64,000 nt of DNA from an uncultured Bacteriovoracaceae bacterium (GTDB taxonomy: Bacteria > Bdellovibrionota > Bacteriovoracia > Bacteriovoracales > Bacteriovoracaceae). This document shows positions 45,091-55,113 of this stretch, one piece after another (within the stretch, counting starts at the first letter, position 1; the number at the start of each line of letters is the position of its first letter). The stretch spans positions 87,575 to 151,574 of the forward strand of contig CALHLC010000012.1 in assembly GCA_938034385.1 (NCBI GenBank). The letters run 5' to 3'. The notes under the pieces were generated by a model. It was not told the origin of the DNA. It searched no databases and saw only the letters and a program-made list of their open reading frames with translations. The position numbers and the translations under genes are program-made.

Positions 45091-47469
45091 TTATTCTCCT
45101 TTTGATATGATTTTTAAAATTTCGATTATTGACTTGTCTGGGTATTTTTCTTTAAATTCATCAATCTGTTTTTGATCAGCTGGATCAGTGGTGCAAATCC
45201 AGTAACTAAGTGGACTTGGTTCTAATCTTAAGACCGTTTTATTTTCTTCTTGAATGAAAAGTAGCTCTGAAAATTTACCCTTATCTTTTCTTAGTGACTG
45301 AATGACCTCTAACTCTCGATCATTTAGGCTTAAGGTTTTTTGAAAGTCTTCCCAGTTTGCTCCACTTTGTCTTAAAATAATTCTGTTAGGAGTATTCTGT
45401 AAGATAGCGTTGGCAATCTCTGGACGAGCTTTAAAGTCATTGATATTTTGAGAAATGGCCCAAATCCCAGCACGAAACTTCCGAAAAGTTCTAAAGGCCT
45501 CAATCGCAAAATTTGCTCCGCACGGCGTATCGAATAATTTCCAAGCTTCATCAACAATTAACAAACTTCTTTTTGTTCGATCTTCCATCATTTTATTTCT
45601 GATAAAATCAGTGAAGATAAGAAGCATGACATTTTGAAGTTCTGGATAACTATCAAGTCCCTTAAGCTCAATGGTGGTTAAGTCCTTATCCAGTGAAATT
45701 GTCGTTTCACCATCAAGCATTCTTCCAAAAGCGGTATTCCCACACCAAGAGTAGAGGATACTTGAAAAGTCTTTGACTCGATGATCCCCTAAGTTTTCAA
45801 GCTCAGATCTAAAATCACTCAAAGTAGGTATCTTTGGAGCTTTCTTTCTATAAGTTTCAAAAATAACCCTTTCAAGTAAGGCTTTTTGAAGTTTGGGAAG
45901 TCCAAGAGAATCATCTTCTTTAAAAATACTTTCAAGTACAGCCAGAATGAACTTTACTTTTGATGGGCTTGGTTTTGTATCTCCATTTGGCAGATCAAAT
46001 AGATTAACTCTTATCCCTGAATCAACTCCAAGATCAATAAATGACCCACTAAGAACTTCAAGCAGTCTCTTTGAAGATGCACCATTATCAATCCAGACAA
46101 TTTGGGGTCTTTCAGTTTGTCCGTAGTATTGAAGGATAATTTGATTGAGCCCGAAGCTTTTTCCACTTCCTGATGAACCAATGACAATACCGTTCCAGGA
46201 ACTAAGAGAATTATCAAAGATGTCTAATCCTACTAAGTTTGATTCTCTATTAGTATAAAGACAAATAGGATCAGGGTTTCCTTGCCAGCTACTTAGGATC
46301 GGTAAGAGGTGAGATAGGTTTGAGCTTTTAAGCTTCTTTTCTCTAAAAGAGATACATCTCCCAGGAAGGTTAGCGATAAAGCTATCCATATTAGTAAGGG
46401 TTTCTCTTACTCCTTGACTCATTTCAAGATCATTAAAGGCCTTTAGGACTAAGTCGACTTTTGTTTCAAGCTCTTCCTCATTTTCTGCTATGATCATGAC
46501 ATTAAAGTCAAAACTCATCAATTTTTCAGCTCCAACTAAATCTCTAAGAAGTGATTCCATATCATCAAGTTTTGCCTCTTGATCGATGTCGGAGATGTTG
46601 TATTCATTTGAAGAAAATGAGTGGGTGACTTTTCTTTTAAGCTTTAGTCCTTCTATCTCTTTTTTCTGAATACCAAGCTTAAAGTTTTGAACGACCTCAA
46701 AGTCAATTGGGAGATTTAGAAACTGATTAATCATCGAAGCATATGTATGAGTATCGGGAAGATCTTTTAAGTTGATGAAGCATACTTTTATGCCATCGAG
46801 GTCAAGATAGTTCTTTCCTACGATCAAATCAGAAAGAGTAAGCGAGTTTGAAAAATTTCCTTTTTTAGGTAAATCTAAAAAATCACTCCTACTTGGATTG
46901 AGGTATTCATAAACCAGTTTTCTCCAGTCACTTTTCTTAAGCTTTTTAGGGTAGAGTTTACAGCTGACAAGGCTTGATTCAATTGCTTCAATGGATCTCT
47001 TAAATTTATCCTTATGAGCTCTAAATTTCTTTTCTTCAATCTCTTGGAATCTTCTAGTTTTTTCAAAGAATTTCTTTTTCTTTAAATCAGGTGTATTTGA
47101 CCTAAAGAAGAGGTAGATTTGAGTATTAAAGAAAACTCCATTTTTTAACCTTAAGTTGAGATAATCTTCTCGATCCTTAACAATGTCTTTGTAGGTTTCT
47201 CCACTATTTCGACCAATATCAAGATGACTTTCAATTTTATTTTCGCAGTCAGTAGACTTTTTGAATCGAACTTGAGCTTTAATATGATCAGGCAGTGAAT
47301 TTAAAAGGACATGTAGATTTTTATAAAAACTGTTTAGACTTTCATCATCTTTTAGTGAGAGATCAATGCCTTGAAGTTCATACCCAATGCCAAGAGAGAG
47401 GTCATCAAAGACCATCAAATCATCATTGATCATCCAGTAAGGTAGTTTATTTGCTAGAGCGTTTTGCAT
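45091..47469 (-). CDS. VirB4/TrbE-family T4SS ATPase
   Basis: 792 aa with Walker A GSSGSGKSF and Walker B LLIVDEAWKLF. Confidence 0.9.
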   Translation of the reverse strand: MQNALANKLPYWMINDDLMVFDDLSLGIGYELQGIDLSLKDDESLNSFYKNLHVLLNSLPDHIKAQVRFKKSTDCENKIESHLDIGRNSGETYKDIVKDREDYLNLRLKNGVFFNTQIYLFFRSNTPDLKKKKFFEKTRRFQEIEEKKFRAHKDKFKRSIEAIESSLVSCKLYPKKLKKSDWRKLVYEYLNPSRSDFLDLPKKGNFSNSLTLSDLIVGKNYLDLDGIKVCFINLKDLPDTHTYASMINQFLNLPIDFEVVQNFKLGIQKKEIEGLKLKRKVTHSFSSNEYNISDIDQEAKLDDMESLLRDLVGAEKLMSFDFNVMIIAENEEELETKVDLVLKAFNDLEMSQGVRETLTNMDSFIANLPGRCISFREKKLKSSNLSHLLPILSSWQGNPDPICLYTNRESNLVGLDIFDNSLSSWNGIVIGSSGSGKSFGLNQIILQYYGQTERPQIVWIDNGASSKRLLEVLSGSFIDLGVDSGIRVNLFDLPNGDTKPSPSKVKFILAVLESIFKEDDSLGLPKLQKALLERVIFETYRKKAPKIPTLSDFRSELENLGDHRVKDFSSILYSWCGNTAFGRMLDGETTISLDKDLTTIELKGLDSYPELQNVMLLIFTDFIRNKMMEDRTKRSLLIVDEAWKLFDTPCGANFAIEAFRTFRKFRAGIWAISQNINDFKARPEIANAILQNTPNRIILRQSGANWEDFQKTLSLNDRELEVIQSLRKDKGKFSELLFIQEENKTVLRLEPSPLSYWICTTDPADQKQIDEFKEKYPDKSIIEILKIISKGE

Positions 47470-47764
47470 AAAAGCTACTCCTTATTGTTACTTTCTCAGC
47501 AGCACTGTAATGTCCTGGAGTCAGGTAGAATCTAAAAAGATCAAAAAGGTACCCTTTAGGCTTTCCTTTCTTTCCAAAATAGAGTCCCATCGACAAAATT
47601 CCAGGAATTCCAAAAACAATGAACTCAGTAAAAGGGAGTCCACTGAATAAGAAATTTAAAACCATGCTGACTAAGAGGATAAAGAGAAGATCTTGGGCAT
47701 CAAGCCCAAAGATCTTCACGTCAGTATCCAAGTTTTTGTGTACGGTTGATGTTTCTAAACTCAT
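47447..47764 (-). CDS. VirB3/TrbD-like protein
   Basis: Small two-TM protein. The ATG at 47764 overlaps the upstream stop (ATGA), and its stop overlaps the VirB4 start. Confidence 0.5.
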   Translation of the reverse strand: MSLETSTVHKNLDTDVKIFGLDAQDLLFILLVSMVLNFLFSGLPFTEFIVFGIPGILSMGLYFGKKGKPKGYLFDLFRFYLTPGHYSAAEKVTIRSSFYAKRSSK

Positions 47765-48066
47765 GCTGCAAACGACTTTAGCCAGTTGATAATGTAGGGA
47801 GCGAGAAATCCAACCACTGAACAAGCAATGATCGTTGTGATTTTTCCCTTGGCCTCTGGTGATCCATTCATCGCGAGAGCTGAAGCGTAGAAAAGACCAA
47901 TAATTGAAAGAAGTGGAAGAATTTGAGTGATCAAGGCATTTGATAATCCTGAGACCTTGGATTCAAAACTTCCCCCGACATATTGAGCACTTGCTTCAGG
48001 GATAGTGAAAATACACAAAACGATAATTGTAATACTTACGATTGAAATTAATTTATTTATTTTCAT
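47761..48066 (-). CDS. VirB2/TrbC-like pilin
   Basis: 101 aa with a long signal peptide ending ..EASA followed by two hydrophobic helices. Confidence 0.55.
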   Translation of the reverse strand: MKINKLISIVSITIIVLCIFTIPEASAQYVGGSFESKVSGLSNALITQILPLLSIIGLFYASALAMNGSPEAKGKITTIIACSVVGFLAPYIINWLKSFAA

Positions 48067-48391
48067 TGAAAAACCTCATTGTTAGTTTGTATCCAGAAAA
48101 CGGAGGGATAGTTATTTCCACAAACTTTGATCCCACACATTCACTGACTTTAAATTTTTTAACGACTCCACCATTTGAGTTGGTGATGACTTTTTCTAAC
48201 TCAAAATAGGTTTGGCTATTTTGAGCTGCTTTGGGGGTTAAGTAATAAATCTCTTTACTTGAAAAGGTACTGACCTTCAGGCGGTAAGTTCCTTTTTCTG
48301 GGTTAAAGAAAGCGACACCTGCGAAGGTATGCTCTTTAGTTTTTAAGCATTTCCAAAAAACTGGGATTGCATCTGGTTTGTATTCATTCAT
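48053..48391 (-). CDS. hypothetical protein
   Basis: 112-aa ORF in the operon with no motif. Confidence 0.3.
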   Translation of the reverse strand: MNEYKPDAIPVFWKCLKTKEHTFAGVAFFNPEKGTYRLKVSTFSSKEIYYLTPKAAQNSQTYFELEKVITNSNGGVVKKFKVSECVGSKFVEITIPPFSGYKLTMRFFNENK

Positions 48392-48403
48392 AATCTTTCT
48401 CCT

Positions 48404-48799
48404 TTAAAGTTGAAGCATTCTTGCTTTTAAGTTTTCTTTCCACTTAGAAAAACTGCTTGAGTACATTTTTTGAAGATTCGTCATCCCATCTTCTAGGTAC
48501 TCTTTAATTTTTTGTTCATTTAGATTTAAGAGTTTTGCAATGTCTTGAGTGTTAAAGTCTCTCCAGTATCTTAGATATAAGACGAGAAATTCTTCTTGGT
48601 TAAGATCGAACATCATCTCTTGGATGAACTCCCTTTGCTCCAAGCTGAAATTTGCGATGGATTGAGCTTCAGGTGCACTTTGTTTTTTTGCGATTTCTCT
48701 TTCTTTTCTCTGCTTAAGCTTTTTGGCTTCAATTAGGTCAATAGTGTAATTTAATGCACTTGCCATAATTAACCTCAAAGCCCTTTTTGGTTTAAACAT
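48404..48799 (-). CDS. small sigma-70 region-4-like HTH protein
   Basis: LVLYLRYWRDFNTQDIAKLLNLNEQKIKEYLEDGMTNL resembles a sigma70 r4 HTH. At 131 aa it is too short for a full sigma factor. Confidence 0.4.
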   Translation of the reverse strand: MFKPKRALRLIMASALNYTIDLIEAKKLKQRKEREIAKKQSAPEAQSIANFSLEQREFIQEMMFDLNQEEFLVLYLRYWRDFNTQDIAKLLNLNEQKIKEYLEDGMTNLQKMYSSSFSKWKENLKARMLQL

Positions 48800-48978
48800 T
48801 CAATCGCGAGGGACAGATGTTTCTCATAATCGGTGATAAGCTTCTGTACTTGCCGATCTCCTGCTAAAACACTAACTGGAAGGTGAGCACACCAAGTTCT
48901 GAAGCGATCCCTTAAGGTCGTAAGGTTCTCGGCCGTCATTTCCAATTTTTTAGTTAGCTGTTGGTTGTTTAGATTCAA
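48775..48978 (-). CDS. hypothetical 67-aa protein, first gene of transfer operon
   Basis: TTG start preceded by an AAGGAGG SD. Confidence 0.35.
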   Translation of the reverse strand: MNLNNQQLTKKLEMTAENLTTLRDRFRTWCAHLPVSVLAGDRQVQKLITDYEKHLSLAIECLNQKGL

Positions 48979-48997
48979 AATTCCTCCTTATGATTAT

Positions 48998-49018
48998 GGA
49001 ATTAAAAAATTTAATTCC
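48998..49018. promoter_or_regulatory. operator-like palindrome GGAATTAAA-N3-TTTAATTCC
   Basis: Perfect 9-bp inverted arms, 20 nt upstream of the TTG start at 48978. Confidence 0.4.
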
Positions 49019-49035
49019 TTCATAAAGTGTATTTT

Positions 49036-49075
49036 TGGAAACCTTGGTGGAAACGGTTTACACTGGTTTCCACTC
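49036..49075. repeat. GGAAAC/GTTTCC four-half-site dyad, copy A
   Basis: TGGAAACCTTGGTGGAAACGGTTTACACTGGTTTCCACTC. A second copy is at 54432-54470. Confidence 0.7.
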
Positions 49076-49174
49076 TAGGGAGCGCCAGAAATAAAAAAGA
49101 ACAGAGCTAAGATTAATTTCGAGGAAATACTGATATTTTTAGACCTATTAAAATGACAGGGGAATTTTGGACAC

Positions 49175-49199
49175 AAAAAAGCCCGAAATTTTTTCGGGC
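49175..49199 (-). terminator. rho-independent terminator of 49244..49588 gene
   Basis: Stem GCCCGAAA/TTTCGGGC followed on the minus strand by TTTTTT. Confidence 0.65.
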
Positions 49200-49243
49200 G
49201 ATCATGTTAAATTAATTTGAACGAGATATTAGTGATTTGTGAA

Positions 49244-49588
49244 TTAAACTTCGTCTTTTATAAGGCTAAAGTCATTAACTTCAGTCAATGTACAATCGCT
49301 TTCGACTGTAAAAGTAAATACATGAGTTATAATTGCTCCACTATCTGCAACAGAGTCAACAGATGTTGCAGCACTTTTAAAGTTTCCGTTAGTGATATTA
49401 GTTGAAACACGTGGGTTATATACTTGGGTAGTAGGGACTCCCATCCCATTCTTAATATAATCAGCTGTTACTTGCTCAAGTTGATTGTAGACTTTTTTAG
49501 TATTAGTGCTATTAGGTTTGCAGGCTGAAAAGCCTGAAAGACTTTTTAAAATTAAAGAAATAATAAATAAATTTCTCGCAATTCTCAT
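49244..49588 (-). CDS. hypothetical lipoprotein
   Basis: The ATG at 49588 has a GGGAGGAA SD. Lipobox LSGFSAC. Confidence 0.45.
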   Translation of the reverse strand: MRIARNLFIISLILKSLSGFSACKPNSTNTKKVYNQLEQVTADYIKNGMGVPTTQVYNPRVSTNITNGNFKSAATSVDSVADSGAIITHVFTFTVESDCTLTEVNDFSLIKDEV

Positions 49589-49919
49589 GATTTTCCTCCC
49601 TCGTTGATTACCACGAGGTATTAATAGCACAAGATAAAGCGTAATTCACGAGAAAATGAAAAAAGCTTTCTGTATAGCGTAGTTTTTATACTAATATATC
49701 GCTGGGGCCTTTTGCCCTAAAACTGCTTAAATTTGATGGATTTACGAAATTTCAACCACTTGTGCGATCGCTCGGACTTTCTGTACATCCAAGTGCCCTA
49801 GAAAAATTTGATTAAATGCCATTCCCCAGCTTGGGTTTCTTAACGCAACCTTAACTTGAAGAAGACTATTGATATGCTAAAAAACTTTTAAGAATTTTTG
49901 TTTTATATAAAGGGGCAAC

Positions 49920-50237
49920 ATGAAAAAAATCATTATTTTAATTCTACTTACTAGTTCAATTTCATTATTAGCAAATGCTATAAAAATCACTAAAAAAGCA
50001 ACTAGTGTTCAAGTAATTGAAGTCGAGACAAAGACAACTTGCAAGGAAATAGATACCTTCATTGATGATATTGATTTTGACTGCAATATAGCACAACTTA
50101 AAAAAAGTATTTCTACAAAAATTGGAAATATTATCAAAATTGAAGGAATGGATAAGAATTCTAATTATGTTTTAAGTAATAGTGTTGATGATGTGGGTAC
50201 TTATAATATTAAGGTTAGGATTTTATACTATAAATAA
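49920..50237 (+). CDS. small secreted protein
   Basis: Signal peptide MKKIIILILLTSSISLLANA. Confidence 0.4.
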   Translation: MKKIIILILLTSSISLLANAIKITKKATSVQVIEVETKTTCKEIDTFIDDIDFDCNIAQLKKSISTKIGNIIKIEGMDKNSNYVLSNSVDDVGTYNIKVRILYYK

Positions 50238-50280
50238 TAACTGAACGATAATCACTCGATTTCTGAATAATTAAATATTT

Positions 50281-50313
50281 CAAGAACCACTGACTAAATA
50301 GCAGTGGTTCTTG
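50281..50313. terminator. hairpin between convergent genes
   Basis: Perfect 12-bp stem CAAGAACCACTG/CAGTGGTTCTTG with a 9-nt loop. The T tract is weak. Confidence 0.5.
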
Positions 50314-50359
50314 TGTTATAAAAAGTTTGGTTCACAATACACCTCTTTGAAATTCATTT

Positions 50360-51165
50360 TTAAGTGATTATTTCAATCATGCGATTTTCTTGACCATTAT
50401 CTCCGGAATATTCAACAACTTTAGCTTGATTTGTTTGTGGGATAGGTGGTGGCTCAATTTTAAGTGATTTTTCTTGTTCTTTCTTTTCTCTTGAGATTTT
50501 TTTCTGAATTTTAAAAGGGTCATCAAGAAAATATTCTCTTACAGTATCAATTTTTATACTGTTTGCTTTCGTCATCGGAATTCCTTCTGCTTTTGCCATC
50601 TCTTTTTTCATTTCCAAAATTTCTTTTGAGATACTTCCAGTAGAAGTATTGGCAATCCTTGCACTTTCCCGGGAACTAATTCCTTTTATAAAAAGTTGCC
50701 TTATGAGTGTACTTGGACGAGTCTTTTTCCTTCCTAAAACACGACCTTCAGCTTTTACTCTTGCAAGGCCGGCAATTACTCGCTCTCTTATTAAATCGCG
50801 TTCTAACTGCGATAAAGCCCCAACTACAGCAACAAGAGCTTGCCCGATTGCTGTGTTTGTATCAATCTGCTCAGATAAGCTAACAAGAGAGCACTTATTT
50901 GACCTCATTGTTTCAAGGCATCTGAGGAGATGGGAACAAGATCTTGAAATTCTAGAAAAAGAGAATGTGGTTACTTGAATTATTCTCCCGTTCCTTATTT
51001 CGTCCATCATTTGATCTAGTGCTGGCCTCGAATCTTTTGCTCCGGATATTGCTGTATCTTTGAAAACTTTGTAGTTACTAATTTCGTTGTCACGATAATA
51101 TTTTTCAATAGACCTAATCTGACTTTCCATACCCCCTTGCTGAAAATTAGTACTCACTCTTACGT
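50360..51165 (-). pseudogene. resolvase/invertase-type serine recombinase, 5' end severed by RIT insertion
   Basis: The body has resolvase blocks (..SGAKDSRPALDQMM.., SRISRS, ALSQLERDLIRERV) and a C-terminal HTH. The frame reads stop-AQHNVRVSTNFQQ, so the first beta-strand and the start codon are missing here. They are found at 54343-54364. Confidence 0.8.
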
Positions 51166-51183
51166 TATGTTGAGCTCAACATA

Positions 51184-51215
51184 ACGTCAGTTATGTGAAG
51201 TCGTTGGATATGTTG
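51184..51215. repeat. RIT left terminal inverted repeat
   Basis: acgtcaGTTATGTGAAGTCGttggatatgttg matches the reverse complement of 54311-54342 at 29 of 32 positions. Confidence 0.8.
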
Positions 51216-51307
51216 TCAATATGTAAATAATGGACGAATTTTTTGCTGGCTCTCCATTTTAACTAAAAATCGCTCTACATATCATTTACTTAAGAAAGGA
51301 GTAAGTG

Positions 51308-52291
51308 ATGATAAGAGAGGTTGTTACAGATCAGGAAAGGGAGTTTTTCTATGCTAGAAAAAAGCTCCCAAAGCTTTACACTGATTATTTAGATTATTGC
51401 AGGAAAATAAAAAACCTAGCAATAGGTACTATCCAAAATAGAAAGAGACATGTTCTTTCATTTATTTTAGAACACCCAAATAAAGCTTCAGCTTCTAAGG
51501 TTAATAAAATAACACAAGAAGAAATCCAAGAGTATGTCGTAAAAGCGGCGACAAATCTCTCAAGAGAAATGAAAAGAAGTCTTGTCGTTTCCCTTAGAGA
51601 TTTTTTTAGGTTTCTTCACTTAAAAGAGTACACTGAGCTTGATTTGTCTCATTCAGTACCTACGATTACAACTTATAGAATGTCTCGAATCCCACGAACA
51701 ATGCCCTGGGAAACGGTTGAGTTAATTTTAAAAACCATTAATAAAAAAACGTTATCTGGAAAAAGAGATTACGCTATCATTCTTGTATTTGCTCGATACG
51801 GTATAAGAGCATGCCAACTTAGAGAGCTTCGATTGAAAGATATTGATTGGGATAAAAAAACAATAAGATTTTTAGCAATCAAAGGTGGAAATGAAATTAC
51901 TTCACCTCTATTTGATGATGTTGCAAAAGCAATTCTTGCTTATTTTAAAGCTGGGAGAATGAAAGCTTCTGATAAATATGATCATGTGTTTTTAACTTCA
52001 GGGGAATGGGGAAGCAAAGTTATGGGGCAAGTGCCCTTAAGAGAGTCAACCTGGAATATTGTGAGCAGGGCCCTGAAAAAAGCGAAACAACAAGGCTTAA
52101 TTAATCATGCTCAGGGACCTCATGCGATTAGACATGCTTTTGCAACAAAGCTTCTGGATAAAGATACTCCTCTCAAAAATATCTCAGATATGCTTGGCCA
52201 TCGATCTTTAGAGACAACTTTTATTTATACAAAGACCAGCTTAAAGCAAATGAGAAAGTTAACACTAAGATGGCCAGGAAGTTCTCTATGA
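51308..52291 (+). CDS. tyrosine recombinase, RIT subunit A
   Basis: AIRHAFATKLL (HxxR) and GHRSLETTFIYT (Y). An SD precedes the ATG at 51308. Confidence 0.85.
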   Translation: MIREVVTDQEREFFYARKKLPKLYTDYLDYCRKIKNLAIGTIQNRKRHVLSFILEHPNKASASKVNKITQEEIQEYVVKAATNLSREMKRSLVVSLRDFFRFLHLKEYTELDLSHSVPTITTYRMSRIPRTMPWETVELILKTINKKTLSGKRDYAIILVFARYGIRACQLRELRLKDIDWDKKTIRFLAIKGGNEITSPLFDDVAKAILAYFKAGRMKASDKYDHVFLTSGEWGSKVMGQVPLRESTWNIVSRALKKAKQQGLINHAQGPHAIRHAFATKLLDKDTPLKNISDMLGHRSLETTFIYTKTSLKQMRKLTLRWPGSSL

Positions 52292-53262
52292 AAAAGATAG
52301 ATCAAAAGTGGCCTGGGCACCTCGGTGAGCTTATGAAAAAGCATATGGATATGAGAAGAGCTATTGGAAGGGTTGGAACAGCTGATGCTTATACTCTTTA
52401 TAACTTTAATAATTTTTTAATCGAAAATTATCCAAAAATTAAAGTTCCAAATAGAATGGCTATTCTTCACTACATGAAAACTTACTCACACTTAAGTGTT
52501 GGAGGACGTAGAAATAAACTCATTTATATTCGCCAGTTTTGTTTATTCTTAAACCAGCGAGGGATAGAGTGTTATGTTCCTGATAAAACTTTAATTCCAA
52601 AGTATACTTATGAACCTCGATATTATCCTCTTAATGAAAAACAAATCATTCAAATAATGAATCTCATTGAAAATTATAAGAATCACCATAACAAAAAATA
52701 TACAGGGAGAATGTACTCAACCTTTATTGGACTTCTCTGGGCCACGGGACTACGCTCAGGTGAAGCATGCAGGCTAAAGCATGAAGACATTGACCTTGAA
52801 GAAGGATTGATCTTAGTTAAGCAAACCAAGTTCTTTAAAGACAGAATTATTCCAATTTCTAAGACATCAATAGAGGCACTAAAGGATCATTTATCCCTAA
52901 AAGAATCTTTAGGTTTGAATACATCTTCAGATTCATCTTTTTTTCTAAACTCTCAAGGAAGACCACTTTCCGCTCATACTGTTGGCTCAATGTTTGGAAG
53001 GTTTGTGAGAAGAATGAAGATAAAAAAGATCAATGGAAGATATCCTGTTTTACATGACTTGAGACATAACTTTGCAACTCAGTGGATTCATCGTTTTTAC
53101 AAAGATACTGCCAAATATCCTCCCCAATCTTATGTCCCAAAGTTATCGACATATTTAGGTCATACAACGTTATTTTCTAGCCAGTATTATATTCATCCAG
53201 ATTTTGACCTTCTTCAAAGTGCATCTAAAAATTTTAACTTAGAGGATTTATATGAAAAATAA
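52270..53262 (+). CDS. tyrosine recombinase, RIT subunit B
   Basis: GLRSGEACRL (R), LHDLRHNFATQ and GHTTLFSSQYYIH. Overlaps the previous gene by 22 nt. Confidence 0.85.
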   Translation: MARKFSMKKIDQKWPGHLGELMKKHMDMRRAIGRVGTADAYTLYNFNNFLIENYPKIKVPNRMAILHYMKTYSHLSVGGRRNKLIYIRQFCLFLNQRGIECYVPDKTLIPKYTYEPRYYPLNEKQIIQIMNLIENYKNHHNKKYTGRMYSTFIGLLWATGLRSGEACRLKHEDIDLEEGLILVKQTKFFKDRIIPISKTSIEALKDHLSLKESLGLNTSSDSSFFLNSQGRPLSAHTVGSMFGRFVRRMKIKKINGRYPVLHDLRHNFATQWIHRFYKDTAKYPPQSYVPKLSTYLGHTTLFSSQYYIHPDFDLLQSASKNFNLEDLYEK

Positions 53263-54232
53263 TTTAATGCTTCTAACTCAAAACTTTTTCCAAAAATACT
53301 TACCAAACGAAAGAGGCTTTAGTCAGCATACTGTTTACTCTTATCGAGATACACTTAAGGTTTATTTTAGTTTTTTATCTCAAAAAAACAAAAAGCCTAA
53401 GCTTGACGATATGACGGCCCAAAATGTTATCAATTTTTTAGATTTTTTAAAAAGCACTAGAAATAACTCAGTTAAGACACAAAACCAAAGACTGGCTGTT
53501 CTAAAATGCTTCTATGAGTATTTACGTGCTCACGACCCGATAAGATCTAATCAATATAGTCGAATTGAACATATAAAAATGAAGAGAGCTCCTAGAAGGC
53601 CGATTGAGTACTTTGACAAAGAAGAGGTTAAAGCAATATTAGATTCAGTCGATCGAGGTAGTCGCAATGGTGATAGAGACTATGCTTTGTTAAAGCTTCT
53701 TTATAATAGTGGTGCTCGTGTTCAAGAGCTTTGTGACTTACGAGTTAGAGATATCAGAGCATATCCACCTTACCTTGTTGAGCTAACAGGAAAAGGAAGG
53801 AAAACGAGAAAGGTCCCATTATGGAAAGATACTGTTCTTTCGCTCGAGTCACTAATAAAGGGGCGAGATAGTTTAGCCCCTGTTTTTTGTTATCAGGAAA
53901 AGCCACTTGGCAGGTTTGGAGTTCGATACATCGTCAAAAAGCATTGCAAGAAAGCATCACAACAACAGATCAGTTTGCAAGGCAAGAAGATTGGTCCTCA
54001 TACTTTTAGGCATACAACGGCAATGCACCTTCTTCAAAGCGGAACAGACATCAGTGTTATAAAAACTTGGTTAGGGCATGTCGATCTTAATACGACTCAT
54101 GGATACATTGAAATTGACCTTGAGATGAAAAGAAAGGCAATGAATAAGATAAGTAAAGTTGCTTCTAAAAACACAGAAAATCTTTTAAAGAAAAATAAAG
54201 ATATTGTCAGTTGGTTATCTAATTTTAAATAA
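53252..54232 (+). CDS. tyrosine recombinase, RIT subunit C
   Basis: GARVQELCDL (R), PHTFRHTTAMHLL and GHVDLNTTHGYIE. Overlaps the previous gene by 11 nt. Confidence 0.85.
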   Translation: MKNNLMLLTQNFFQKYLPNERGFSQHTVYSYRDTLKVYFSFLSQKNKKPKLDDMTAQNVINFLDFLKSTRNNSVKTQNQRLAVLKCFYEYLRAHDPIRSNQYSRIEHIKMKRAPRRPIEYFDKEEVKAILDSVDRGSRNGDRDYALLKLLYNSGARVQELCDLRVRDIRAYPPYLVELTGKGRKTRKVPLWKDTVLSLESLIKGRDSLAPVFCYQEKPLGRFGVRYIVKKHCKKASQQQISLQGKKIGPHTFRHTTAMHLLQSGTDISVIKTWLGHVDLNTTHGYIEIDLEMKRKAMNKISKVASKNTENLLKKNKDIVSWLSNFK

Positions 54233-54310
54233 AAAACAAAAAGATATGTGAAGTAATTTTCTGTGTTAAGAGTTTTTTTACGCTGACTGGTTGTATTTAT
54301 TAAAAGTTTG

Positions 54311-54342
54311 CAACATATCAAGCGACTTCACATAACTTACGT
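54311..54342. repeat. RIT right terminal inverted repeat
   Basis: caacatatcaagCGACTTCACATAACttacgt, the partner of 51184-51215. Confidence 0.8.
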
Positions 54343-54364
54343 AGCTTGCATGATATCTGTTCAT
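54343..54364 (-). pseudogene. orphaned 5' fragment (MNRYHAS..) of the serine recombinase gene
   Basis: The ATG at 54364 overlaps the stop of the upstream HTH gene (TAATG). Joining it across the 7-bp repeat gives MNRYHASYVRVSTNFQQ in frame. Confidence 0.75.
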
Positions 54365-54912
54365 TAATCCTCCGTTTTTGTGGGATTAAGTTTTGTTATT
54401 AGTTTTATAATCCCTTCATAGAGTGGTGAAATGGAAACCTGAGTGGAAACCGTTTCCACTTGGTTTCCATTTTTACACTTATTAGAGAGGTAGTTTTTTT
54501 CAATGAAAAATTTTAAATTTTCTATCGCTCTGTTTCTTATCTTGGAGACAGCTGTGTGTGAAATTTTTAATTCCTTAGCAAGCTGTCTCATTGAAAGATT
54601 CCCGAAGTATAAACCGGTAATAACAGTTTTTTGCTTAGGACAAAGACTTTGAATACTTTTATCTAAAATTTCTTTGAAGTGAATATACTCTTTGTCTGTT
54701 TCGATATTTTGAAATAGAGTTGAAATTTGTATCTTCTCAGCTCTATCATCGAAGTATTCTTCATTATGAATTTGTCGCTCTTTTTGGTTGATCTCAATAG
54801 TTTTTAAATACCGTTCCCAAGTTTCTGGGTTCCAAGTTTTTACGGCTTCTTTTAGATCTGTATCTGAAAGTGCTTGCCCTTTTTCATCTAACCACGGAAA
54901 TTCTTTGTTCAT
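54364..54912 (-). CDS. sigma-70 region-4-like HTH protein
   Basis: The ATG at 54912 has an AAGGAG SD. QKTVITGLYFGNLSMRQLAKELKISHTAVSKIRNRAIENL is an r4-type HTH. Confidence 0.5.
   Translation of the reverse strand: MNKEFPWLDEKGQALSDTDLKEAVKTWNPETWERYLKTIEINQKERQIHNEEYFDDRAEKIQISTLFQNIETDKEYIHFKEILDKSIQSLCPKQKTVITGLYFGNLSMRQLAKELKISHTAVSKIRNRAIENLKFFIEKNYLSNKCKNGNQVETVSTQVSISPLYEGIIKLITKLNPTKTED
54432..54470. repeat. GGAAAC/GTTTCC four-half-site dyad, copy B
   Basis: TGGAAACCTGAGTGGAAACCGTTTCCACTTGGTTTCCAT, a near-perfect palindrome inside the 3' end of the HTH gene and about 70 bp upstream of the recombinase ATG. Confidence 0.7.
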
Positions 54913-55048
54913 TGCATTGCTCCTTATGTTGCGCCGAGTAATTCGACTGTTGTTAAGTGCAAACACTAAGTACAAATCTGGCACCAAGAATTTTTAAAAC
55001 CCGGCCTTTTAAAAACAGTTAGTTAGAAGTTTGAAGAAAAATATCCAT

Positions 55049-55082
55049 ATCAATATTGATTTGACTTCGTATCAAAATTGAT
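55049..55082. promoter_or_regulatory. twin palindromic operator-like sites ATCAA-NN-TTGAT
   Basis: ATCAATATTGAT (55049-55060) and ATCAAAATTGAT (55071-55082). Their centres are 22 bp apart, and they lie 32 bp upstream of the operon start. Confidence 0.45.
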
Positions 55083-55113
55083 ATAGAAGTGATCAACTTC
55101 GGAGATCAAAGGT

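Follow-up and report, generated by a model that had tools for sequence, protein, structure and literature searches.

In Agrobacterium Ti plasmids, the element-encoded small helix-turn-helix (HTH) protein TraR activates conjugation operons in a signal-dependent manner at dyad boxes, the tra boxes, which lie before more than one operon and overlap or replace the -35 element. A similar layout is described here for a 64,000-nt stretch of DNA from an uncultured Bacteriovoracaceae bacterium (contig CALHLC010000012.1; hereafter the window), in which two copies, A and B, of a dyad of about 40 bp built from four heptamers lie at the two ends of a 5.4-kb segment, copy A upstream of the head operon of a type IV secretion system (T4SS) and copy B upstream of a serine recombinase gene. 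TraR is a LuxR protein with an autoinducer domain and its dyad measures 18 bp, whereas the candidate regulator of the window is of the sigma-region-4 type, the four heptamers lie in the regulator's coding tail, and the activator role is putative. From the sequence comparisons described below, it is proposed with moderate confidence that A and B represent one operator/promoter module of this regulator present twice, A controlling the T4SS operon and B the recombinase-cargo block, with A carrying a decayed regulator tail. Both copies are real and probably work as a cis-element.

Further described systems resemble the locus in part. Pho boxes, the sites of PhoB, and NarL arrays (7-2-7) are likewise composed of heptamers about one helical turn apart, located about 10 nt 5' of a -10-like element and replacing the -35 element; in NarL-type arrays, close inverted heptamers are read by a small four-helix HTH domain. 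These proteins belong to a different family, and the two direct plus two inverted heptamers with a 7-1-7 centre found here are noncanonical. Region 4 of extracytoplasmic function (ECF) sigma factors such as E. coli sigmaE (PDB 2h27) corresponds to the DNA-binding domain of the regulator in fold and family, and GGAAAC resembles the core of the ECF -35 element; unlike in ECF sigma factors, no region 2 is detectable here, the sites are four in two orientations, and no ECF-type -10 element follows 16-17 nt downstream. Tn916, an integrative conjugative element compared by description only, encodes Orf7 and Orf8, small sigma-70-region-4-like proteins just 5' of the transfer genes that they are thought to control, but it belongs to a different host phylum, and a four-heptamer operator comparable to that of the window is not known for Tn916. 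Finally, the res sites of Tn3 and gamma-delta and the hix/gix sites of Hin/Gin are dyads just 5' of a small serine recombinase gene; in contrast to these, A and B show odd symmetry, wrong or unequal spacing, unequal centres and no linkage to the recombinase across relatives. A literature search on Bacteriovorax, conjugative elements and type IV secretion returned no paper, and conjugative elements of Bdellovibrionota are essentially unstudied.

Anatomy and conservation of the two modules

The modules and the regulator gene comprise the following features:

49036-49075, minus strand: copy A, three TGGAAAC heptamers plus GTTTACA, 58 bp 5' of the T4SS head operon
54432-54470, minus strand: copy B, four TGGAAAC heptamers, located 68 bp 5' of the recombinase ATG and within the 3' tail of the regulator gene
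54364-54912, minus strand: gene of the sigma-region-4 (ECF-type sigma4-like) regulator, 182 amino acids (aa), start ATG at 54912; the open reading frame (ORF) reaches up to TTG 54987
49012-49029, minus strand: box of module A, CACTTTATGAAGGAATTA on the minus strand; the same box lies 3' of regulator genes at at least 17 related loci
54408-54425, minus strand: box of module B, CACTCTATGAAGGGATTA on the minus strand
48998-49018, minus strand: AT-rich hairpin of module A, GGAATTAAA..TTTAATTCC, followed by GGAGG (48983-48988) and TTG (48978)

Both dyads were found exactly as spelled out in the original prediction. Its distances also held: the roughly 60 bp given for copy A measured 58 bp to the TTG (48978) of the 67-aa first T4SS gene, and the roughly 70 bp between copy B and the recombinase start measured 68 bp to the ATG at 54364, copy B lying inside the HTH gene (ORF 54364-54987) as predicted. 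The heptamers follow the layout 7-5-7-1-7-3-7 in A and 7-5-7-1-7-4-7 in B, with two direct and two inverted heptamers per dyad whose starts are 12, 8 and 10-11 bp apart. A pattern search of the window for TGGAAAC-N4-GTGGAAAC with 0 mismatches returned only positions 49036 and 54432. The heptamer TGGAAAC alone is not enriched in the window (14 matches versus 10 expected), and 7 of these 14 lie inside copies A and B. Besides A and B, no site with three or more half-sites was detected in the genome (66 contigs, 2.67 Mb), where full dyads are confined to A and B. A dyad-pattern scan of metagenomes gave four matches, all on unrelated high-GC contigs without related proteins, an inner-palindrome scan across the phylum stayed at or under the level of the reversed-pattern control, and a distant blastn search of 47400-51180 against a plasmid database yielded no match.

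The similarity between the two copies reaches beyond the dyad. A repeat search extended it to 58 nt (49012-49069 and 54408-54465, 76% identical), and in a gapped alignment it runs from about 15 nt 5' of the dyad through the ribosome-binding site to the start codon. The resulting module of about 120-130 bp has the order dyad, about 11 nt, box CACT(C/T)TATGAAGG, AT-rich hairpin, GGAGG and start codon, its conserved box being CACTYTATGAAGG. Equivalent hairpins with different stem sequences are present in module B (54382-54414) and at the related loci L005, L022, L023, L032, L034 and L052. With the dyads masked, the flanks aligned as direct repeats in a quality reached by 0/300 shuffles, whereas the inverted alignments were equalled in 37/300 and 219/300. 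The relative orientation, initially considered ambiguous, is thus resolved in favour of direct repeats, and inversion of the 5.4-kb segment is therefore unlikely.

The box takes the form CC(C/A)YT-TA(T/G)-(G/A)GRGG and was recognized 3' of the regulator gene in at least 17 loci (e.g., CACTYTATGAAGG, CTTAGTGAGGGG, CCCTATAGGGTGAGAGGAC), 25-55 nt before the next start codon. Since it often lies past or across the regulator stop codon, its conservation is at the DNA level. At L024, L025, L028 and L030, direct repeats 9-11 bp apart precede the box in place of the dyad; repeats at this position recall activator sites of the pho-box type, which replace a -35 element. A position-weight matrix of the box was tried as a definition of a regulon and abandoned as too unspecific over the whole genome. 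Separately, the box in L024, L028 and L030 was seen to resemble the core of phage T7-type promoters (ACTATAGATAGGGAGA, CCCTATAGGGTGAGAGG).

Within the modules, conservation is concentrated on the heptamers: A and B agree in 27/28 heptamer columns versus 56/109 other module columns (Fisher p = 3e-6). This excess argues for old copies with selectively kept heptamers rather than for a fresh target duplication. Read as coding sequence in the regulator tail, copy B corresponds to NGNQVETVSTQVS. In the regulator-tail frame, copy A reads ..V* followed by TVSTKVSKNTLYEGI, and B reads VETVSTQVSISPLYEGI; the decayed tail TVSTKVSKNTLYEGI in A stands against TVSTQVSISPLYEGI in B, and the variant heptamer GTTTACA in A forms a TAA stop in the frame of this vestigial tail. 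Copy A thus represents the degenerated 3' part of a duplicated regulator gene end.

These features could also mean that copy A is a dead relic of a duplication or block exchange, with only B, or neither copy, being functional, and the decayed tail TVSTKVSKNTLYEGI, its in-frame stop and one damaged heptamer fit this view. However, conservation of the heptamers greatly exceeds that of the remaining module, A retains the box, the hairpin, the ribosome-binding site and the spacing, and A occupies the only stretch able to hold the promoter of the T4SS operon. No match to a sigma-70-type promoter was found on the minus strand between the intrinsic terminator at 49181-49199 and the start at 48978, nor did a sigma-70 promoter scan on the gene strand reveal anything at A and B; with the terminator upstream and no such match in between, the T4SS promoter must fall in the stretch containing copy A and the box. 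A relic is accordingly judged very improbable. Copy A between terminator and 48978, as well as copy B 68 bp before the recombinase ATG, occupy regulatory positions, as expected of operators.

Linkage of the dyad to neighbouring genes

In many genomes of the family, members of the regulator family are encoded directly 5' of T4SS head genes on the same strand, often with a response regulator gene in divergent orientation. One of the closest comparators is L052, where the regulator is 56% identical and its tail holds TGGTAAC four times in an array of the 7-4-7-1-7-5-7 kind, followed by the box CTTAGTGAAGGG, a hairpin, a ribosome-binding site, a p67 homolog (p67 being the 67-aa first T4SS gene; 68%), a sigma-region-4 protein and a pilin, without a recombinase. 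This is the layout expected were the 5.4-kb segment absent. L005/L056 encode a VirB4 76% and a regulator 31% identical to those of the window; their four-part dyad (TTTCGGTC / AGTCAC-C-GTGAC / GACCGAAA) is followed by a lipoprotein gene and p67, again without a recombinase. At L053 (regulator 49% identical, response regulator divergent), the regulator gene contains the dyad TGTCCAC-C-GTGGACA plus TGGCAAC, after which comes a recombinase with an N-terminus almost the same as in the window enzyme. L047 (regulator 39%, recombinase 74% identical) carries its recombinase after the dyad-bearing regulator, and its dyad (GGCACCC / TGGAAAC-C-GTTGCCA / GGGTGCC) shows the same 12/8/11 spacing. Conversely, L049/L050 encode a regulator lacking tail and dyad, followed by a recombinase (83% and 76% identical over two parts). 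In the contigs paired with them, L054/L055, the cargo consists of AzlCD, a trypsin-like protein and MepB, and a terminator separates it from the box TTTTTCCCATTAGTGAAGGG, which is followed by a ribosome-binding site and the T4SS head genes; L050 and L055 stem from one sample. The order terminator, box, ribosome-binding site and T4SS head in L054 is the same as at copy A.

In the window and at L052, L053, L047, L005 and L056, the dyad is thus located within the regulator-gene tail, whatever gene comes next. Since it occurs without a recombinase (L052, L005) and the recombinase occurs without it (L049), the dyad goes with the regulator tail. The cross-genome comparison that the original prediction had called for therefore showed linkage to the regulator gene and not to the recombinase, and across related elements the dyad co-occurs with the regulator gene, as an operator would. 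Judged from these loci, the module is where a gene for a sigma-region-4-type regulator meets the T4SS head operon, a junction conserved in a family of conjugative elements of Bacteriovoracaceae.

The central proposal made for this locus had been that the dyads could be recombination sites, making the 5.4-kb segment excisable or invertible. In the version considered here, the dyads would be binding or crossover sites of the serine recombinase (res-, hix- or att-like), the segment between direct copies being an excisable or integrated cassette now frozen by the RIT element that interrupts the recombinase gene. A and B do bracket the recombinase-bearing segment, B lies just 5' of the gene as is usual for resolvase sites, and TGGNAAC-like heptamers recur in the recombinase-bearing window, L047 and L053. 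Moreover, recombinase homologs also have clusters of half-sites upstream (TTGTTAC for the paralog C2 in the same genome and for G315 from the same genus, GGCGGACC at L048 and L059), and nearly identical recombinases stand beside very different regulators (26-49% identical), so the recombinase block has been transferred between elements, each time to a place behind a regulator gene. Against these points stand the loci with a dyad and no adjoining recombinase (L052, L005) and the recombinase without a dyad (L049), as well as the fact that homology among the recombinase loci begins at the ORF and not in the upstream module.

The geometry of the dyads argues in the same direction. Serine recombinases cut with a 2-bp stagger, the axis of their sites running between base pairs, whereas in A, B, L052, L047, L053 and L005 the dyad axis passes through a single base (AAC-C/G-GTT, CAC-C-GTG). 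When the copies are read in direct orientation, A has a G and B a C at this centre. Heptamers 2 and 4 span 25 bp in A versus 26 bp in B, heptamers 1 and 3 span 27 bp in both copies, and in no combination do two heptamers form a site that is both even in length and equally long in A and B.

Sites of a different kind accompany the closest intact relatives of the recombinase, which belong to C2 (79% identical, 300 aa) and G315 (75%). The HTH segment SSRESARIANTSTGSISKEI is identical in the recombinases of the window, C2 and G315. Upstream of the latter two lies an array of the TTGTTAC type with two direct copies of CTTGTTAC 11 bp apart, followed by a CTTGTTAC...GTAACAAG palindrome of 28-31 bp; neither has a regulator gene beside it, and the array is absent from the window. 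If these arrays are cognate, the window enzyme, with its identical HTH, should not read TGGAAAC. A more distant homolog (50%) is preceded by two copies of GGCGGACC plus an inverted one. The CTTGTTAC array looks like the cognate res-like site of this enzyme type. A TGGTAAC cluster 5' of the C2 paralog was at one stage regarded as evidence for recombinase binding; it was dropped, as G315 shows the core CTTGTTAC and a different architecture. The C2 paralog is itself located at a contig start (C2:1-460, L045), behind a fragment resembling the 3' part of a tRNA (C2:78-136) in which ARAGORN detected no full tRNA; its palindrome of 28 bp has a counterpart of the same architecture in the same genus (L058:1270-1340, G315).

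Taken together, neither even symmetry, nor a common centre and spacing, nor travel with the recombinase was found. Odd symmetry, unequal centres, missing recombinase linkage and the different array of the paralogs make an excision or inversion system based on A and B very unlikely; the inversion variant moreover conflicts with flanks that are direct repeats. Recombinases of the RIT element were also considered as heptamer binders and discarded, since the RIT inverted repeats show no resemblance to the heptamers.

Candidate binding protein and alternative roles of the dyad

Among the readings considered, the one mentioned originally as an alternative, namely operators for sigma-region-4-like HTH proteins, is favoured by the comparison with related elements. 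For the regulator, the listed ORF start at TTG 54987 would give 207 aa, whereas homologs and an AAGGAG ribosome-binding site favour ATG 54912 and thus 182 aa. Pfam assigns Sigma70_r4, i.e., region 4 only. The NCBIfam model TIGR02937 (sigma70-ECF superfamily) was matched with 50.5 bits at a cut-off of 42.9 over profile positions 61-162 only; positions 1-60 remained unmatched and no sigma region 2 was detectable. An AlphaFold2 model (mean predicted local distance difference test score, pLDDT, 67.5) comprises a helical N-domain and a sigma4-like domain, for which Foldseek returned only the ECF sigma4 domains 3hug and 2h27 with weak E-values. Entry 2h27 belongs to E. coli sigmaE, and ECF sigma4 domains read -35 elements of the GGAAC type. 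In the same model, residues 146-161, encoded by the dyad, have pLDDT values below 50, and this linker of the regulator tail is predicted to be disordered.

Symmetry and co-variation support binding of a protein to the heptamers. Over the six dyad-bearing loci, 80.6% of cells are paired versus 68.6% in shuffles (0/500), with slid controls reaching at most 49.5%, and 7/17 pairs are altered on both sides. Between TGGAAAC in the window and TGGTAAC in L052, all four heptamers have changed at the same position (A versus T); since they changed together, one DNA-binding domain reading four sites is a simpler explanation than a hairpin. The recognition helices of these two regulators are close (SHTAVSKIRNR in the window, SHVAVAKTRDR in L052) and their heptamers differ by one base, while more distant helices in L053, L047 and L005 go with other heptamers; this comparison covers only five lineages, three of them with unequal inner and outer heptamers. 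The helices of the 131-aa proteins encoded in the head operon are not close.

The competing explanation is a nucleic-acid hairpin, either an RNA stem-loop of the regulator message with an attenuating, processing or stabilising function, or a single-stranded DNA inverted repeat of the type found at origins of transfer (oriT), the box then being the nick region. Very stable folds were calculated for B (-26.5 kcal/mol, z = -6.6), L052 (-33.2), L047 (-27.6) and L005 (-19.3), and compensatory changes preserve the pairing. Furthermore, the arrangement seen here, in which a variable inverted repeat and a conserved box are separated by about 10 nt and precede a transfer operon, is shared by many oriT regions. 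By contrast, pairing does not require that heptamers be identical within the window and within L052 and change together. Copy A is weakened to -14.5 by an uncompensated change and L053 retains only the inner 6-bp stem (z = -0.4), being nearly unfolded, yet 27/28 heptamer positions are kept between A and B. In addition, no U-tract for termination follows, distant elements carry direct repeats, unable to pair, at the same place, and a search of the dyad against Rfam families gave no match. For the oriT variant, two copies per element would be unusual and the relaxase candidate is a sub-threshold Replic_Relax match. Overall, a hairpin function is considered unlikely.

Two observations concern the palindrome itself. 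On the plus strand, copy B also receives a score as a terminator-like hairpin, interpreted here as a consequence of its palindromic sequence. Beyond copy B, a mirror-image box TTTTTACACTTATTAGAGAGG (54470-54492, plus strand) lies antisense inside the regulator gene, and mirrored dyad flanks were also noted at L052:479-496, L047:610-636 and in L005; the mirrored box could be an antisense promoter or simply belong to the outer portion of a palindrome some 60 bp long.

The operator reading builds on the observed anatomy, conservation, co-variation and link to the regulator gene. According to it, the regulator, probably as a dimer of dimers, would occupy the heptamers and thereby regulate transcription from the box, its most likely role being that of an activator substituting for the missing -35 element. 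In the clade of the window, the heptamer array overlaps the coding sequence of the linker, predicted to be disordered, in the C-terminal tail of the regulator itself. Copy A would govern the T4SS operon and copy B the recombinase-cargo block. The simplest explanation for copy A itself would be that a unit comprising regulator, copy B, recombinase and cargo became attached directly 5' of a T4SS module already in place, the junction falling within the tail of the earlier regulator gene. Identities of neighbouring genes contrast strongly: recombinases are 74-87% identical and the adjoining regulators 26-49%, and VirB4 is 76% identical to that of L005 versus 31% for the regulator, which indicates that blocks were exchanged at the regulator/T4SS junction.

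Several points weigh against this reading. Inner and outer heptamers differ in L047, L053 and L005, a feature that a single domain recognizing four equivalent sites leaves unexplained and that, as a difference between inner and outer arms, also suits a hairpin. The palindrome extends past the heptamers with locus-specific complementary sequence and its single-strand fold is very stable, likewise fitting a hairpin. The heptamers could instead be bound by the 131-aa sigma-region-4 protein or by the divergently encoded response regulator, and both the identity of the binding protein and the choice between activation and repression belong to the inferred part of the proposal. Clear direct repeats 5' of the box are present in only about half of the loci, and a box matrix built without A and B is not specific genome-wide, A ranking 13th and B 27th. 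Finally, the comparators are for the most part short contigs from metagenomes, and dyads were found at only six loci; the co-variation rests on these six because protein searches for further regulator homologs added only three proteins. Readings of the heptamers as ECF-type -35/-10 or sigma-54 -24/-12 promoters were also attempted by eye and set aside for want of a fitting second element.

Surroundings of the modules and meaning for the element family

The modules are part of an island with a tyrosine integrase beside mutM, a VirB-type T4SS, an FtsK-like coupling protein and a weak Replic_Relax match. The genes and elements next to the modules are:

48775-48978, minus strand: first gene of the T4SS head operon, 67 aa (p67), TTG start
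48404-48799: gene of the 131-aa Sigma70_r4 protein, after the 67-aa gene and followed by pilin, VirB3-like and VirB4 genes
49181-49199, minus strand: intrinsic terminator that ends the recombinase-cargo block, 106 bp 5' of copy A
50360-51157, minus strand: body of the serine recombinase (invertase/resolvase type, tail of 85 aa), from which the RIT element separates the first 8 codons at 54341-54364
51184-54342, plus strand: RIT element with three tyrosine recombinases, splitting the recombinase gene
49244-50237: cargo, a 128-aa lipoprotein-like ORF (minus strand) and a 105-aa signal-peptide ORF (plus strand)

The interruption of the recombinase by the RIT element, as proposed initially, was confirmed: the first 8 codons are separated from the body at 50360-51157, and the RIT element ends in 48-nt inverted repeats (51184-51231 and 54295-54342). 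Gin and gamma-delta resolvase are the best solved relatives of the recombinase, whose subfamily was found in 37/237 genomes of the family. Members of this subfamily are repeatedly interrupted. Besides the window copy, split by the RIT element at codon 8, the contigs L049 (7488-7961) and L054 (38-568) both break in the recombinase gene after ..ERDLIR with foreign sequence at both ends, and at L051 (6624-10125) the recombinase ends at about residue 180, beside two tyrosine-recombinase genes on the opposite strand. The recombinase gene may be a preferred target of such elements.

The slot between regulator and T4SS head carries variable cargo and is a cargo hot spot. In the window it holds the two small secreted/lipoprotein ORFs (49244-50237), for which a family search gave no matches; in relatives, a 191-aa lipoprotein (L005:3193-3768) as well as AzlCD, a trypsin-like protease and MepB (L054:728-3919) were found. 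The small lipoproteins of this slot could be candidates for entry exclusion.

A sigma54-type response regulator gene lies divergent from the regulator gene. The intergenic region between the two (55040-55090) contains repeated TATCAA..TTGATA dyads (ATATCAATATTGATTTGACTTCGTATCAAAATTGATAT), which represent a candidate binding site of the response regulator. The genome furthermore harbours a second T4SS (C13:117767-120127, L046) with a VirB4 76% identical to that of the window; it is located at the extreme end of contig C13, so that its head genes and regulator are unassembled. No close relative of the whole element was found among genomes of the same genus.

With the crossover-site proposal, the more exciting possibility of a recombinase-driven switch is left without support. 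Instead, the results define a likely control point of DNA transfer, consisting of a sigma4-like regulator, a putative heptamer operator in its own coding tail and a promoter-like box. The regulator/T4SS junction is modular, and the analysis provides a marker by which such elements can be found; the results are of relevance mainly for specialists in mobile elements and predatory bacteria. As a more far-reaching and rather improbable extension, the regulators may be minimal element-specific sigma-like factors, each with its own heptamer array and a shared box of the TATAGGG/TATGAAGG type, the module then being the preferred joint for block exchange in conjugative elements of predatory bacteria. 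If this holds, each captured block, e.g., the recombinase-cargo block, would become subject to the conjugation switch by way of a module copy of its own.

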